From: Escherichia coli
Lineage (GTDB): Bacteria; Pseudomonadota; Gammaproteobacteria; Enterobacterales; Enterobacteriaceae
Strand: one strand, 5' to 3'
NCBI RefSeq assembly: GCF_003334385.1
Contig: NZ_QOWN01000072.1
Length of the DNA stretch: 7,350 nucleotides
The stretch's first letter is position 1, and the number at the start of each line of letters is the position of its first letter. The notes below the pieces were generated by a model. It made no database searches and was not told where the DNA came from. It saw nothing but the letters and a program-made list of their open reading frames with translations. This document shows positions 245-7,350 of the stretch, one piece after another. The position numbers and the translations under genes are program-made.

Positions 245-433
245 TTATCCAGCCGGTATTTCGTTATTCAGGTTCAGCGATACTTTTTTTAACGGGAGGC
301 ATTCACCGGGGATTTTTTGTTCGTCCCTTACCTGAATGCAGGATGACTTACTGTCATAAATTCCGGTAATCACATTTTGTGGCTCACCCGTTATAAGAAA
401 AACGGTCATCACCAGTGCAAATGCTGAAGTCAC
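245..433 (-). CDS. small hypothetical protein (62 aa), second gene of a leftward two-gene unit
   Basis: ORF track 245..433 (-). GTG start at 433..431 overlaps the upstream stop (GTGA), with GGAG 7 nt upstream. Alternative ATG start at 409 has no SD. No family recognised; position matches the small kilR/ydaE-type genes left of sieB in Rac-like prophages (inference only). Confidence 0.45.
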   Translation of the reverse strand: MTSAFALVMTVFLITGEPQNVITGIYDSKSSCIQVRDEQKIPGECLPLKKVSLNLNNEIPAG

Positions 434-1321: not shown

Positions 1322-1768
1322 ATGGACCGGGATGATATTCTTGACAGGGTTTTATATGGTTATTTTCTTGAACAACTATTCTCTGTAGCGACTGGTCGTC
1401 TCGATAAACTTTTCTCAGTGGTGAGTATTATCCTCGGTTCATCTGTCATTGGTGGATTTATTCCTGAAGTTTCTGGAGTTCTCATTGTTGTGATAGCAAC
1501 CGTTCAAACGATTTACGGATTCGGACAAAAGTCAGGTAACGCAATGAGAAAATCCGCAGAATATCTGCAGCTTTATGATGATGCAGAAAAATATTCCGAT
1601 TCGGAATTGAAAATGCAGTTAAAGCTCCTGGAAAAAACAGATGATAATATTTGGTCGTCGCTTAAAGATATCGCAATCTTAAAAACCCAGATCAAAATAG
1701 GAATCTCCGTAGAACAACAAGAGAAACTGTCTGCAAAATCCAAATTGATGCGATTCCTTTGTGGTTAG
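1322..1768 (+). CDS. membrane protein with two predicted TM helices; SieB-like superinfection-exclusion protein by position and topology
   Basis: ORF track 1322..1768 (148 aa). Hydrophobic hairpin LFSVVSIILGSSVIGGFIPEVSGVLIVVIATVQTIYGF followed by a charged, coiled C-terminus. Transcribed opposite to the neighbouring early genes, as sieB is in Rac. AGGTGA lies 10 nt upstream of the ATG. Family assignment is not verified. Confidence 0.6.
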   Translation: MDRDDILDRVLYGYFLEQLFSVATGRLDKLFSVVSIILGSSVIGGFIPEVSGVLIVVIATVQTIYGFGQKSGNAMRKSAEYLQLYDDAEKYSDSELKMQLKLLEKTDDNIWSSLKDIAILKTQIKIGISVEQQEKLSAKSKLMRFLCG

Positions 1769-2292: not shown

Positions 2293-2583
2293 TTAACAGC
2301 TTTTGTTTGGATACTGCCTTCGTGAGTGAACTACATTTACGATCTCGATGTTAGATGCTGTTACTCGGTAAAGTATTATGTAGTTAGGATGGGTCACTAT
2401 CTCACGAAGGCCTAGAGCTCTTTCGCTTGGTGGATACAGGTAAGGGTGTTCAGTAAGTGACAAAACTGATGTTTCAATGCGTATTTTTAGTCTACGTGCA
2501 GCGGGAGGGTTTTCCTTGGCAATATAGGCTACGATCTGACGCAAATCATCACGCGCAGAAGGTAGCCATAAAATGGGCAGCAT
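2293..2583 (-). CDS. parE: type II toxin, RelE/ParE family (ParE-like), 96 aa
   Basis: ORF track 2293..2583 (-). Translation MLPILWLPSARDDLRQIVAYIAKENPPAARRLKIRIETSVLSLTEHPYLYPPSE...GLREIVTHPNYIILYRVTASNIEIVNVVHSRRQYP matches the ParE/RelE pattern from memory. Its ATG overlaps the antitoxin stop (TAATG). Resembles parE of the prophage paaR-paaA-parE systems; paralog number cannot be determined. Confidence 0.85.
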   Translation of the reverse strand: MLPILWLPSARDDLRQIVAYIAKENPPAARRLKIRIETSVLSLTEHPYLYPPSERALGLREIVTHPNYIILYRVTASNIEIVNVVHSRRQYPNKSC

Positions 2584-2774
2584 TACTCACTCCTGTTCGT
2601 CGAAGCTATTTGCGCAATAAGGTTTTCCATTTCAGCCATTACTTCGTCATGCGGAATTGCAGGACGGGGGTCTGCGAGGCTTGCTGCCACTTTGGTGCGT
2701 AACCATTCGTTATAGCTGTTTTCTTGTTCGATTGTTTCAAATTCTGAAATTATCGGGGAAAGGACTGTACTCAT
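2583..2774 (-). CDS. paaA: small antitoxin (63 aa), PaaA-like partner of the ParE toxin
   Basis: ORF track 2583..2774 (-). Lies immediately upstream of, and is translationally coupled to, the ParE-family toxin. GAGGAGG SD 7 nt before the ATG at 2774. Acidic 63-aa protein, the size I recall for PaaA2. Assignment rests on context and length, not a search. Confidence 0.7.
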   Translation of the reverse strand: MSTVLSPIISEFETIEQENSYNEWLRTKVAASLADPRPAIPHDEVMAEMENLIAQIASTNRSE

Positions 2775-2791: not shown

Positions 2792-3292
2792 TTAGGCGCG
2801 ACGACCTTTTTGCGCCTCTAGCCACCGCGCAACGGTTTCTTCAATTGATTCTTTTTTCTCCTTCATTTCCTTAAGCATTTTCTCTTTGTCTTCTTTTGGG
2901 AAAGCCCTGAACGTCTGGATCAAATCTCGCTCTATAGGTTCTATATTAAACGGAAGTTCGTTTTCCGATTGTTCCATCTCTGCGGGTAAAGCGACAACAT
3001 TATCCTGCTGCAGTTCTTGGGGGTACATCCTTACAATTCGTAACAAGTCTGCCATATCTGGTCTAATTGACTCAGGCGGAACTTGTAGCAACCCAGCGAA
3101 CTTGATAACAGCCTCTAGATTTAAAGGTGTCTGACCATTTAGATAATGGCTTACTGCCCCTTGTGTCGAAAAACCCAGAATTTCTGCCGCACGCTCTTGG
3201 GTTAACCCAAGTTGAGTTTTTTTCGTCGTCCAGATTTCTTTCAGTCTCTGGGCGGCTTGCAGGTCGATCTCTGACAGGGGTTTTCTTTTCAT
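2792..3292 (-). CDS. paaR: HTH (XRE/Cro-CI family) transcriptional repressor, 166 aa; candidate prophage immunity repressor and regulator of the toxin-antitoxin operon (PaaR/RacR-like)
   Basis: ORF track 2792..3292 (-). N-terminal HTH LGLTQERAAEILGFSTQGAVSHYLNG. No LexA/S24 peptidase-like C-terminus. Divergent from the ydaS/ydaT pair across an operator-containing spacer. Stop lies 17 nt before the antitoxin start. Confidence 0.85.
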   Translation of the reverse strand: MKRKPLSEIDLQAAQRLKEIWTTKKTQLGLTQERAAEILGFSTQGAVSHYLNGQTPLNLEAVIKFAGLLQVPPESIRPDMADLLRIVRMYPQELQQDNVVALPAEMEQSENELPFNIEPIERDLIQTFRAFPKEDKEKMLKEMKEKKESIEETVARWLEAQKGRRA

Positions 3293-3399: not shown

Positions 3400-3663
3400 A
3401 TGAATCTTGGAGAATATTTGCATCATTCCCGTATAACCCAGAAAGATTTTGCTGAAATTGTTGGGGTAACCCAAGGGATGGTAAGCCATGTTATTACTGG
3501 ACGGGCGAAACTTACGGGGGGGAAAGTTTTACGCTGGTGTGAAGCAACAGGGTGGGTAGTGACCCCGCACGAGATTGATAGCAGTACTTACCCCAACCCA
3601 ACCGATGGCATACCTGTTGACTATCAGGCTAACACACAACCCACGCTGGGAGTTGATTCATGA
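3400..3663 (+). CDS. ydaS: Cro-like HTH protein YdaS (87 aa)
   Basis: ORF track 3400..3663. Motif GVTQGMVSHVITGRAKLTGGKVLRWCEATGWVV matches YdaS/Cro-like proteins paired with YdaT in Rac-type prophages. GAGGTG SD at 3390-3395. Stop overlaps the ydaT start (ATGA). Confidence 0.8.
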   Translation: MNLGEYLHHSRITQKDFAEIVGVTQGMVSHVITGRAKLTGGKVLRWCEATGWVVTPHEIDSSTYPNPTDGIPVDYQANTQPTLGVDS

Positions 3664-4085
3664 AAATCAAGCATGAACACATCCGCATGGCGATGAATGT
3701 CTGGGCGCATCCGGACGGCGAAAAAGTACCGGCTGCGAAAATTACCAAAGCGTATTTCGAGCTGGGAATGACGTTCCCGGAACTGTATGACGACAGCCAT
3801 CCGGAAGCCCTGGCCCGTAATACCCAGAAAATTTTCCGCTGGGTGGAGAAGGACACCCCTGATGCTGTTGAAAAAATTCAGGCGCTGTTACCGGCGATCG
3901 AAAAGGCGATGCCGCCTTTGCTGGTGGCCCGTATGCGCAGTCACAGTTCTGAATATTACCGGGAGATCGTCGAACGACGGGATCGGCTGGTGAAAGATGT
4001 GGATGATTTTGTCGCAGCGGCGATCGCCTGGGGCACCCTGACTAACAGTGGTGGTCAGCCTGGTAATGCTGTTGTTGTGCATTGA
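3660..4085 (+). CDS. ydaT: YdaT-family protein (141 aa), the toxic / CII-equivalent partner of YdaS
   Basis: ORF track 3660..4085. Starts MKIKHEHI and is 141 aa, matching my recollection of E. coli Rac YdaT. GGGAG SD 8 nt upstream. A Chi octamer GCTGGTGG lies at 3920-3927. Confidence 0.85.
   Translation: MKIKHEHIRMAMNVWAHPDGEKVPAAKITKAYFELGMTFPELYDDSHPEALARNTQKIFRWVEKDTPDAVEKIQALLPAIEKAMPPLLVARMRSHSSEYYREIVERRDRLVKDVDDFVAAAIAWGTLTNSGGQPGNAVVVH
3920..3927 (+). other. Chi octamer GCTGGTGG (single copy, inside ydaT)
   Basis: Exact plus-strand match to 5'-GCTGGTGG-3' at 3920-3927. No reverse-complement copy was found in the window. Confidence 0.5.
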
Positions 4086-4153: not shown

Positions 4154-5191
4154 ATGGCTAATGCCTGGCTCAGATTGTGGCATGACATGCCAAATGACCC
4201 CAAGTGGCGAACGATTGCCAGGGTATCAGGACAGCCAATCGCAACAGTGATGGCAGTGTATATCCACCTTCTGGTGAGCGCGTCACGAAATGTCACGACA
4301 TGTCACGGCGTGTCACTACGTGGTCACATTGATGTCACGACGGAAGATTTAGCAAGTGCGCTTGATGTGACGGAAGACGTAATTGATTCAATTTTGCATG
4401 CAATGCAGGGGCGGGTTCTGGATGGTGACCTTATTTCCGGATGGGAAAAACGTCAGGTGCTGAAAGAGGACAATGGTAACGTTTCGCAAACGGCAAAATC
4501 CCCGGCAGAGCGCAAGAGAGCGCAGCGGGAGCGCGAAAAGCTGCGGAAATATGATGCTGATTGTCACGATGAGTCACGACGTGTCACGCATCTGTCACGA
4601 CAAGTCACGACAGATAAAGATACAGATACAGAATTAAACCCCACACATAACGCGCGCATGCGCGAGAGTGCTCCAACCGGTGAGTCGCATGGTGCGCCGT
4701 TGCAGACAGCCGAACCTGAATACCTGGACGGCCTGAGCGAACCGATCGGGAAATTTTCGATGACTACTGTCTGGCAGCCGTCGTCGGATTTTCGACAACG
4801 GGCAGCAGTGTGGGGTATGGCTCTGCCTGAGCCGGAATTTACACCTGCTGAGCTTGCCGCATTCCGGGATTACTGGATGGCGGAGGGGAAGGTTTTCACG
4901 CAGGTTCAGTGGGAGCAGAAATTTGCCCGCCACGTGCAGCACGTCAGGGCACAGGTAAAACCAGTCAGCAAGGGGGTAAGCCATGCAGCATCAGGTGGCA
5001 CGGCATCACGGGCAGTTCAGGAAATCCGGGCAGCACGCGAACAGTGGGAACGTGACAACGGATTTATCAGCAACGGAAACGGCCTGGAAGCTGTGGGAGC
5101 TTATGGGGGAGGTGTATTCGAACCGCTGGACACAGAAGAACGGGGCCGCACCTTCGAAGCTCTGGATTGCCCAGATTGGCGCGATGACTGA
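4154..5191 (+). CDS. replication initiator, lambda-O-like: replisome-organizer N-terminal domain, internal iteron-encoding segments, C-terminal region resembling a DnaT-like domain (345 aa)
   Basis: ORF track 4148..5191; preferred start is ATG 4154 with GAGGTG SD at 4145-4150. N-terminus WLRLWHDMPNDPKWRTIA is typical of phage replisome organizers. C-terminal TVWQPSSDFRQRAAVWGMALPEPEFTPAELAAFRDYWMAEG looks DnaT-like (from memory). Two iteron arrays lie inside the gene. Confidence 0.85.
   Translation: MANAWLRLWHDMPNDPKWRTIARVSGQPIATVMAVYIHLLVSASRNVTTCHGVSLRGHIDVTTEDLASALDVTEDVIDSILHAMQGRVLDGDLISGWEKRQVLKEDNGNVSQTAKSPAERKRAQREREKLRKYDADCHDESRRVTHLSRQVTTDKDTDTELNPTHNARMRESAPTGESHGAPLQTAEPEYLDGLSEPIGKFSMTTVWQPSSDFRQRAAVWGMALPEPEFTPAELAAFRDYWMAEGKVFTQVQWEQKFARHVQHVRAQVKPVSKGVSHAASGGTASRAVQEIRAAREQWERDNGFISNGNGLEAVGAYGGGVFEPLDTEERGRTFEALDCPDWRDD
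4281..4342 (+). repeat. iteron array 1: six direct repeats of a TGTCACGAC-like unit at 10-11 bp spacing
   Basis: GTCAC cores at 4282, 4292, 4302, 4312, 4323 and 4334. A degenerate GTGAC copy follows at 4367-4371. The array encodes SRNVTTCHGVSLRGHIDVTT within the initiator. Confidence 0.6.
4561..4640 (+). repeat. iteron array 2 (five TGTCACGAC-like repeats) with adjacent A/T-rich GATACA repeats; candidate origin core
   Basis: GTCAC cores at 4563, 4573, 4583, 4594 and 4604, followed by gataaagatacagatacagaattaaacc (4613-4640). Layout parallels lambda ori (iterons plus an A/T-rich region inside the O gene). Confidence 0.6.
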
Positions 5192-5645
5192 ACAGCAAAT
5201 CCGGCTGGTCTGCCGTCAGTGCATGGACCGCTGCCGGGCGGGTGAAACGTGGCCCCCAGACCTGGCTGAGTTTGTTGCACTGATTTCGGAGAGTGGGGCA
5301 AATCCATTTGGTCTTACGGTGGATGCAGTGATGGAAGAGTACCGGCGCTGGCGCAATGAATCCTGGCGATACGACGGGAGTGATAAATACCCGTGGCCAC
5401 AGCCTGTGCTGTACCACATCTGCCTCGAAATGCGTACCAGAGGGATTGAGCGCCAGATGACGCAGGGTGAGTTAAAACGACTTGCGGAACGGCAACTGAC
5501 GAAATGGGCAAAGCATGTTGGTAACGGGATGAGTGTTCCGCCAGTGCGACGACAACTGGAAGGGGCGAAACACCCGCAAGGGCCAACGCCAATTGAACGG
5601 CTGAAACAGGAATACGAACGCCGGAAGGCAGCTGGTTTTATTTGA
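4983..5645 (+). CDS. replication protein, lambda-P-like helicase loader (220 aa as drawn; start uncertain)
   Basis: ORF track 4983..5645. Segments WPPDLAEFVALISE, KYPWPQPVLYHI, ELKRLAERQL and SVPPVRRQLE align with lambda P as I remember it. ATG 4983 has the best SD (AGGGGG, 6 nt) but overlaps the O-like gene by 209 nt. Alternative starts are ATG 5103 (weak SD) and ATG 5184 (ATGACTGA overlap with the O stop). Confidence 0.75.
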   Translation: MQHQVARHHGQFRKSGQHANSGNVTTDLSATETAWKLWELMGEVYSNRWTQKNGAAPSKLWIAQIGAMTEQQIRLVCRQCMDRCRAGETWPPDLAEFVALISESGANPFGLTVDAVMEEYRRWRNESWRYDGSDKYPWPQPVLYHICLEMRTRGIERQMTQGELKRLAERQLTKWAKHVGNGMSVPPVRRQLEGAKHPQGPTPIERLKQEYERRKAAGFI

Positions 5646-5678: not shown

Positions 5679-6395
5679 ATGGAAACCGTATTTGACGCAC
5701 TGAAAGCACTGAAAAGAGCCTCTTCACAGGTAGTGGCGGCCCGCCTTGGAATCAGCCGTGAAGATGCGGTCAACGAACTGTGGAAACTGAAGCGCCGCGG
5801 TGAAGCGGATAACAAGGGTTCGATGTGGTGGCTGATTCAGGCTGGTGAAAGTGAACCGGTGTCACCGGTACCGAAAGTGACAGCGCAAATGCTGACTGAG
5901 GCGATTGAACAACATGGCCCACAAACGGCGGATGAGCTGGCACTGATGTTCGGGATTACCTCCCGCCGGGCGAATTCATCGCTGGCCATGGCAATCAGCA
6001 AAGGGCGTCTGATTCGCGTGAATCAGGGTGGTAAATTTCGTTACTGCATACCGGGCGCTGATTTACCGGCAGAGCCGGAAGCTGCATCCGTAGCGGAAAC
6101 CGATGGTAAAGCCTTTCCTCAGCCAGCAGGTGTTGCGTTACCAGTACAGGAAATGATGGCACAGGAAGAAATGAAAACAGAAATCGTGGAAGACATTGTG
6201 AGGTTACAGCCATCGATCACCGAAATGAAAGCAGATGACCTGATTCTACCATCGCTGCATGTGGCTAACCGCGAGCTGCGCCGGGCGAAAAGTGATGTCC
6301 AGAAGTGGGAGCGAGTCTGTGCTGCGCTGCGGGAACTGAACAAACACAGGGATATTCTCCGGGATATTACCGCCACCAGAGAGCAGCAGCGGTGA
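5679..6395 (+). CDS. hypothetical protein with two tandem winged-helix-like segments (238 aa); possibly DUF1627-type prophage protein
   Basis: ORF track 5661..6395; preferred start ATG 5679 with GGAGG at 5666-5670 (8-nt spacing), since the track start is a TTG. Two repeats of a wHTH-like pattern (residues about 1-55 and 75-130) and a charged coiled C-terminus. DUF1627 assignment is from memory. Confidence 0.7.
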
Positions 6396-6709
6396 GTGGC
6401 TGGAAGAAGTGGCGCTGGGCTGAAATCCTGATACTCCGGCAGTGTGCGGGAACGATGAGAGTCGAAAGCATCGGTTATCTGATTGGTCGTAGTGAGTCAG
6501 CCGTCAGGACGAAAGCGCGGGAACTGGGTATCAGCATGATTTTACGGGGTGATTTTCACCCGTCGGCAAAATATTCACAGCGTGATATTGAGCTGGCGCG
6601 GCAACTGCATCAGCGTGGCGTACCCCGACGGGAAATTGCCGAAAAGTTTGGGATGAAGTTGGGCGCAGTGAATAACTACGTTTATTTCGACAGGAGGGTT
6701 CAGGAGTGA
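6392..6709 (+). CDS. small putative HTH DNA-binding protein (about 105 aa; start uncertain)
   Basis: Part of ORF track 6305..6709. GTG 6392 overlaps the upstream stop (GTGA); ATG 6455 is the alternative. HTH-like segments [21 protein letters not shown] and [20 protein letters not shown]. No family recognised. Confidence 0.55.
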
Positions 6710-7008
6710 GGGTGAGGATTTATATCGCCGGTCCGATGACGGGATATGAAAATTTCAACCGCGAGGCGTTTCACAGGGCGGAAGATGCGCTGAAACGGGA
6801 AGGGCATACCGTTTTAAACCCGGCAGTACTTCCGGACGGGCTGACTCAACCACACTACATGGATATTTGCATGGCAATGCTCCGTTGCGTGGATGCGGTT
6901 TACATGCTGAAAGGCTGGCAGCAGTCGGCAGGTGCAAGGGCTGAGCTGGCACTGGCGGAGAAACTGGGCCATGCGGTGATTTTTCAGGAGGTGGGCAGTG
7001 AATATTGA
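6706..7008 (+). CDS. DUF4406-like protein (nucleoside 2-deoxyribosyltransferase-like fold family), 100 aa
   Basis: ORF track 6706..7008. N-terminal RIYIAGPMTG motif typical of DUF4406 prophage proteins (from memory). GTG start overlaps the upstream stop (GTGA); GGAGGG 7 nt upstream. Confidence 0.75.
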   Translation: MRVRIYIAGPMTGYENFNREAFHRAEDALKREGHTVLNPAVLPDGLTQPHYMDICMAMLRCVDAVYMLKGWQQSAGARAELALAEKLGHAVIFQEVGSEY

Positions 7009-7216
7009 CCCGGCGATAACGATTGATATGGCCCTGAACACCGGCCTAGCACTTCTTGGTTATCTCTACATCATGTTCTGCAGCGGACGATGGCTGTCAC
7101 TGTTGTTCAAAAATGGAATAAACGCCGTAAGCAGGAGCAACGCCAGAAGGCAATGGATGCATTTTTCGAAGCCTTCGGGATTGACAGCATGGAACCAGGG
7201 GATCCAGCTCGCGTAA
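6998..7216 (+). CDS. small putative membrane protein (72 aa); reading frame uncertain after the TM segment
   Basis: ORF track 6998..7216. GTG start with AGGAGG SD (6986-6991) at 6-nt spacing. N-terminal hydrophobic helix ITIDMALNTGLALLGYLYIMF. A second small ORF in another frame (ATG 7090 to stop 7246-7248, MAVTVVQKWNKRRKQEQRQKAMDAFFEAFGIDSMEPGDPARVISRGDVVILV) overlaps it. Confidence 0.35.
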   Translation: MNIDPAITIDMALNTGLALLGYLYIMFCSGRWLSLLFKNGINAVSRSNARRQWMHFSKPSGLTAWNQGIQLA

Positions 7217-7264
7217 TTAGCAGAGGTGACGTTGTAATTCTTGTATAACGGAATGAAGAGAAAA

Positions 7265-7350
7265 ATGAGCGAGATTAACTATCAGGTACTGCGTGAAAAG
7301 GCAGAGAAAGCAACTAAAGGAAGCTACATCGTAGGGCATACATCTGTTAA
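7265..7350 (+). CDS. hypothetical protein, 5' end only (continues past the window)
   Basis: ATG at 7265 with purine-rich GAAGAGA upstream. Translation MSEINYQVLREKAEKATKGSYIVGHTSV stays open to the window edge. Confidence 0.4.
   Translation, partial: MSEINYQVLREKAEKATKGSYIVGHTSV

Follow-up and report, generated by a model that had tools for sequence, protein, structure and literature searches.

The two small open reading frames (ORFs) that overlap near the end of the window, by which we mean the whole stretch of 7,350 nucleotides of Escherichia coli DNA that was analysed, are very probably one DUF4752 gene, not two, inactivated by a real 4-bp deletion; we put the probability of this reading at about 0.93. 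The deletion is present, it is inherited, and the gene that carries it belongs to DUF4752; we infer that the truncated product is non-functional. The locus is an ordinary pseudogene, already flagged as such by RefSeq/PGAP at the identical locus.

The ORF list of the window gives one ORF at 6998..7216 (plus strand, GTG start, 72 aa) and another at 7090..7248 (plus strand, ATG start, 52 aa). The second lies in the −1 frame relative to the first and the two overlap, just as a preliminary description of this DNA had reported, with the translations that it quoted. The features of the locus and its surroundings are as follows.

6706..7008, plus strand: DUF4406 gene, the upstream neighbour, whose stop overlaps the DUF4752 start by 11 nt.
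6987..6992, plus strand: Shine-Dalgarno sequence AGGAGG, 5 nt 5' of GTG 6998, as read from the sequence.
6998..7248, plus strand: DUF4752-family pseudogene, full extent in the window; RefSeq labels the identical locus 'DUF4752 family protein, frameshifted'.
6998..7108, plus strand: authentic codons 1-37 (MNIDPAITIDMALNTGLALLGYLYIMFCSGRWLSLLF), identified from alignments, hydropathy and the AF2 helix.
7090..7092, plus strand: out-of-frame ATG inside codons R-W-L of the true frame; the start is not conserved.
Within 7090-7130: window sequence across the deletion junction, GTTCAAAAATGG.
7108..7109, plus strand: site of the 4-nt deletion, ancestral GTTC-ATGA-AAAAATGG versus GTTC-AAAAATGG in the window.
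7109..7216, plus strand: out-of-frame tail of the 6998 ORF (KNGINAVSRSNARRQWMHFSKPSGLTAWNQGIQLA, then stop); the protein is not conserved, and intact alleles have here only a stop-rich alternative frame.
7111..7245, plus strand: genuine coding sequence of the C-terminal part (KWNKRRKQEQRQKAMDAFFEAFGIDSMEPGDPARVISRGDVVILV), which the deletion has put in the −1 frame, identified from alignments and the third-position excess across the junction.
7246..7248, plus strand: private nonsense codon TAA, which is TAC (Tyr) in Eco889, VT2-Sakai and the metagenome contig.
7265..7350, plus strand: ead/Ea22-like gene, downstream, of which only the start is present before it runs off the window (locus position 1866 is window position 7265).
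L008:10772-13518 (NZ_AP045172.1 3345771-3348517), outside the window: the frameshifted portal gene and other pseudogenes of the same prophage.

We aligned the window with intact references, namely VT2-Sakai orf78 (94 aa) and the alleles of E. coli strains 472, 214-4 and THO-003. Relative to the intact alleles of VT2-Sakai (orf78) and strain 472, the sole indel is the absence of ATGA (4 nt) between 7108 and 7109, a placement that is ambiguous by one base (ATGA or TGAA). When the four nucleotides are put back, the result is an 84-aa protein, MNIDPAITIDMALNTGLALLGYLYIMFCSGRWLSLLFMKKWNKRRKQEQRQKAMDAFFEAFGIDSMEPGDPARVISRGDVVILV, which matches the Pfam model PF15944 (DUF4752; residues 7-84 on model positions 1-78 of 84, E 8.1e-38) and PHROG 667 (positions 1-84 of 94, E 1.6e-38). 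Each half also matches PHROG 667 when searched alone, the N-terminal half at positions 1-54 (E 2.5e-13) and the C-terminal half at positions 36-84 (E 3.5e-20), which shows that their likeness to two parts of one protein is no coincidence. The intact homologues fuse both reading frames into a single protein of 91-105 aa; one named example, VT2-Sakai orf78 (BAA84361; H128), is 88% identical to the repaired protein over all 84 residues, and E. coli WP_001017965.1 (105 aa) is another. These results bear out the earlier proposal that a frame change splits one small protein. That proposal placed the shift near 7080-7095; the frame change does fall within the overlap of the ORFs, but its true site, between 7108 and 7109, is about 15-25 nt further downstream.

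The joined frame is the conserved one. In a tblastn search with the repaired protein, 93 of 103 matching phage records carried one unbroken frame over residues 1-84, at identities down to 31%, and the hosts of these phages span six genera: Escherichia, Shigella, Salmonella (ST64T Orf-90, BTP1, L), Klebsiella, Erwinia and Hafnia. A search of 1.84 billion representative proteins yielded just 40 relatives. All 28 homologues that we aligned (82-111 aa; 23 from the representative search and 5 from the first homologue search) span the junction. Among the E. coli alleles, read in the joined frame, the numbers of variable sites at the first, second and third codon positions were 12, 9 and 24 before the junction and 8, 5 and 20 after it, and this third-position excess carries across the junction only in the repaired frame. 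No protein-level counterpart of the tail of the 6998 ORF (KNGINAVSRS...) was found in the intact homologues; this tail had initially been described as poor-looking. The comparison with homologues suggested at that stage thus shows the sequence of the 7090 frame to be conserved, which is the opposite of a 6998 frame conserved at full length beside a second frame without similarity to homologues.

The intact gene of strain 472 has its PGAP start at the equivalent GTG (locus position 309, window position 6998); in close relatives the DUF4752 ORF extends to a TAA at 7276-7278 in window numbering, and in intact alleles its stop overlaps the start of the ead/Ea22-like gene. The window shares with members of PF15944/PHROG 667 such as VT2-Sakai orf78 and WP_001017965.1 the start codon, the Shine-Dalgarno sequence and the neighbours (DUF4406 upstream, Ea22-like downstream), and differs from them in the 4-nt deletion after codon 37 and in a nonsense codon at position 85. 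Because of these two lesions, the window copy cannot make the family protein. Whereas a DUF4752 gene is one uninterrupted ORF of about 80-110 codons, the copy in the window is broken by the deletion and by TAA 7246, and we therefore classify it as a pseudogene member of DUF4752, not a functional one. Orf-90 of Salmonella phage ST64T (NP_720304.1) belongs to the same family at 45% identity. This protein and the homologues from BTP1, phage L and Klebsiella, Erwinia and Hafnia phages share the hydrophobic segment, the W-KRRK basic stretch, the helix and the beta-hairpin, and their genes occupy the same place, directly behind the replication genes in the early-right operon; they differ from the window copy in being intact, divergent in sequence and set in other mosaic contexts.

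The deletion is not confined to this record. A 60-nt query across the junction was 100% identical in 84 complete E. coli records, and the span with the additional four nucleotides, the intact form, was present in 423. None of the 52 matching phage records carried the deletion, and all of them keep the longer form; both sets in this comparison (84 of 507 genomes and 0 of 52 phages) show strong clonality, and their counts cannot be treated as independent. Given the same junction in 84 complete genomes and in none of the 52 phage records, we conclude that the deletion is a genuine mutation that has been inherited, rather than an error of sequencing. The C-terminal ORF is open in all 84 genomes with the deletion and could conceivably retain some residual function; in 83 sister genomes it is 62 aa long and intact. 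The second lesion is of narrower distribution: the change of TAC to TAA is private to the strain among 5,426 complete genomes, and it cuts off the final 10 codons, among them those for a widely conserved Arg and the C-terminal YR...E residues. Over 6990-7260, one of 590 matching E. coli records reaches an identity of at least 99%. The same deletion is found in strain Eco889, whose prophage occupies the same potC site but has a different immunity and replication module, which indicates that the deleted allele persisted through at least one mosaic exchange.

The preliminary description allowed for either a real frameshift or a sequencing error. In the latter case the gene would be intact in the cell, with the four nucleotides missing only from the record, and DUF4752 variants resembling homopolymer errors do exist in the databases, such as the T5-to-T4 change in NCTC9112 and the double shifts at G-runs in P0036, P0057 and P0019. 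However, inspection of the homopolymer context, as had been advised, showed that the lesion is the loss of ATGA with homopolymer length unchanged. Moreover, the identical junction is shared by 84 complete genomes, which come from many different laboratories and sources, and it recurs independently in a metagenome contig; the 62-aa ORF made by the deletion is likewise repeated in protein databases (P0051-53), where it even has a family of its own, PHROG 29388. These observations make an error extremely improbable. The frames might also be rejoined during translation, by programmed or leaky −1 frameshifting at UUC-AAA-AAU, which would yield a near-native protein minus only Met38 (LLF-KKWNK): a −1 slip of tRNA-Lys after AAA 7109-7111 would restore the native downstream sequence exactly, and the deleted allele persists in 84 genomes with the C-terminal frame open. 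Yet an X XXY YYZ heptamer is absent from the 6998 frame over 6998-7216, the run of A is only 5 nt long, and the predicted fold of 7100-7200 (−23.5 kcal/mol, z −0.37) was equalled by 63 of 200 shuffled sequences. The two-frame layout occurs in no homologue, the ancestral state is a single frame, and the window has since acquired a premature stop in the second frame. With neither a slippery heptamer, nor downstream RNA structure, nor a two-frame homologue, programmed frameshifting is unsupported, and we hold it to be exceedingly unlikely. A search of 6600-7350 against Rfam gave only a chance snoRNA match (E 0.98), and a scan of 6300-7350 for promoters and terminators gave no promoter and one terminator-like site at 7080-7097, no more than in shuffled sequences.

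A division of the gene into two working parts, in which an anchor peptide from the 6998 ORF and a soluble C-terminal peptide from the 7090 ORF are both made and act together or separately, would agree with the open state of both ORFs and with the intact 62-aa C-terminal ORF of the 83 sister genomes. Against this, ATG 7090 lies within the upstream ORF, and a search for a good Shine-Dalgarno sequence 5' of it found none (the upstream sequence is gcagcggacgATG). Nor is this ATG a conserved start: in intact alleles the equivalent codon opens just an 11-codon ORF (MAVTVVHEKME, then stop), and for this reason we regard it as an ATG that lies out of frame by chance. The first ORF ends in 35 residues that are not conserved, and the nonsense change has removed the conserved C-terminal YR...E residues from the window allele. 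We consider such a division very unlikely. The 7090 ORF does match a family of its own, PHROG 29388, a 62-position profile whose positions 1-52 align with the ORF from its first residue (E 2.2e-39); judging from the 62-aa proteins P0051-53, this family is probably an annotation artefact built from the C-terminal fragment of the same deleted allele.

Under the preferred reading, one gene broken by a deletion, the course of inactivation was very probably as follows. Loss of ATGA after codon 37 inactivated the DUF4752 gene in a lambdoid prophage adjoining potC. Translation from GTG 6998, with its good Shine-Dalgarno sequence, would still produce the N-terminal tail and the hydrophobic anchor, after which the ribosome would be in the wrong frame from 7109 until the stop at 7214-7216; the product would be 72 aa long, its last 35 residues being nonsense. 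Stranded in the −1 frame are the conserved basic stretch, the helix and the beta-hairpin, which the chance ATG at 7090 makes look like a separate 52-aa ORF. The private change of TAC to TAA at 7246 fits ongoing decay.

The family alignment indicates what the intact protein looks like. The N-terminus is short and either acidic or neutral. It leads into a hydrophobic segment (LNxGLALxGYxYI...GxW), followed by a basic stretch (WxKRRKxxxRQKA) and then by a helix (NxFxDAFxLD); beyond these come a PG turn and a beta-hairpin, which ends in a conserved Arg. The part encoded by the 6998 frame, MNIDPAITIDMALNTGLALLGYLYIMFCSGRWLSLLF, comprises the N-terminal tail followed by the hydrophobic anchor, at about residues 11-37. 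Its hydrophobic segment, residues 11-29, has a Kyte-Doolittle 19-residue mean of 1.46; the family has a median of 1.55, with 12 of 29 members at 1.6 or above. The 'clean TM helix' read from this frame at the outset is a plausible reading, but the hydrophobicity of the segment is only moderate. The basic segment said to follow it in the 7090 frame, KWNKRRKQEQRQK, is indeed there. The net charge of the repaired protein is −2 before the hydrophobic segment and +6 after it, and the same positive-inside bias is found in 29 of 29 aligned proteins (net charge from −2 to 0 on the N-terminal side of the segment, and from +2 to +7 over the 20 residues that follow it, with +3 or more in all but one). An AF2 model based on the family alignment places residues 5-61 in one unbroken helix and residues 72-84 in a hairpin, with a mean pLDDT of 75.5. 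Taken together, these sequence features suggest that the intact protein is a small N-out/C-in bitopic inner-membrane protein of the early accessory region. Searches with the repaired protein or either half gave no match in NCBIfam, and the defence models of PADLOC gave none; a sequence-profile search of the PDB returned nothing below E 0.37. A Foldseek comparison of the AF2 model with the PDB returned nothing below E 4.9, and for this reason no function can be assigned by fold. Our literature search found DUF4752 mentioned in no paper, and a modelling paper on the exo-xis region (PMC8614690) contains neither 'transmembrane' nor 'DUF'; the passages of it consulted describe no protein of this kind.

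The window covers the immunity, replication and early-accessory region of an E. coli lambdoid prophage and is 100% identical to part of NZ_AP045172.1 (strain JNEC-KY176; GCF_055661405.1), in which the prophage adjoins potC and spans integrase to tail genes. The DUF4752 gene sits in the nin/ea-type early accessory region, 3' of the replication genes and between DUF4406 and the Ea22-like gene. Comparable contexts occur in ST64T, PhiR46_1, phiEt88 and VT2-Sakai: DUF4752 follows the replication genes in the window, ST64T and phiEt88, and lies beside Ea22 in Stx phages and PhiR46_1. In P22, the slot of the ST64T DUF4752 gene holds just the 26-codon ninA; since P22 does without the gene, DUF4752 looks like a dispensable early accessory gene of the phage. 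The P22 ninA was also considered as a named DUF4752 homologue and was rejected, being only 26 codons long. Other pseudogenes in the same prophage include the portal gene (frameshifted), YdfR, DUF551 (in two pieces) and a small hypothetical gene, and the prophage is probably defective, unless the assembly has indel errors.

Several further features of the prophage may be recorded here. A RelE/ParE toxin gene (2293-2583, minus strand) and a RelB antitoxin gene (2583-2774, minus strand) adjoin a gene for an HTH-domain protein in the repressor position (2792-3292, minus strand). Eco889 has a LexA-family repressor and no RelBE, and immunity modules thus differ at the same potC site. The cII-like slot holds a 'toxin YdaT family' protein (3660-4085, plus strand), followed by a DnaT-like-domain replication protein (4154-5191, plus strand) and a short 153-aa replication protein P (5184-5645, plus strand). 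The early-left operon includes DUF1482 and the cell-division inhibitor DicB (window 245-433 and 430-618, both minus strand), and between dicB and the immunity region the opposite strand (1322-1768, plus strand) codes for a hypothetical protein of 148 aa that contains a hydrophobic segment.

Other damaged alleles of the gene are found among its relatives. The metagenome contig L009:126-401 (ENA SUEZ18-1 scaffold_2395) agrees with the Eco889 allele over the ~300 nt that were aligned, the 4-nt deletion among them, and carries a further deletion of 5 nt between two AAT repeats, at the window equivalent of about 7112-7118. The net change of −9 restores the frame (…LLFKNKRRKQ…, 91 aa, P0001). In this single metagenome contig, the sequence looks like second-site frame restoration, and it may hint that the function is sometimes selected back. 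E. coli NCTC9112 (L004:339-625) has a separate frameshift at a T5 run, shortened to T4, at the window equivalent of 7162-7166; the 79-aa truncated product of this type (…MDAFSKPSELTAWNQGIQLAQSAEGV) recurs in the database proteins P0029, P0033 and P0043. P0050 (79 aa, …MNAFPKPSELTAWNQ…) shows a comparable T-run shift in another allele background, and in P0048 (79 aa) the shift lies further upstream. These frameshifts may stem from sequencing errors at homopolymers or from genuine mutations that recur. Double shifts at G-runs occur in P0036, P0057 and P0019. The last of these (72 aa, 'Uncharacterised protein' at NCBI) has the window-like GYLYIMF haplotype, but reads GRWL/VTVVQKWNK…EPG/IQLA (slashes mark the shifts), which implies a +1 insertion upstream of the −4 deletion that partly restores the frame, followed by another shift at a G4 run. 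P0084 (111 aa) is chimeric, with an N-terminal half from DUF4752 (anchor plus KRRK) and a C-terminal half that resembles the neighbour DUF4406 (…LNPAILPGGLEQREYMDICCAM…); it probably arose by recombination or deletion, with the two adjacent genes fused in reverse order.

Several lesions look independent, among them the −4 deletion of the 84 genomes, the frameshifts at T-runs on two different allele backgrounds, and the nonsense codon private to the window. One might speculate that DUF4752 encodes a small membrane protein, made early, that burdens the lysogen and is hence repeatedly knocked out in resident prophages; if so, the frame restoration of the L009 type would represent selection in both directions. 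We consider this unlikely, and the multiple lesions could equally reflect sequencing noise and clonal sampling.

Beyond correct annotation, the significance of the finding is small. The two small ORFs should not be called separate genes, and the 4-nt deletion provides a convenient lineage marker for the potC-adjacent prophage module common to 84 complete E. coli genomes.
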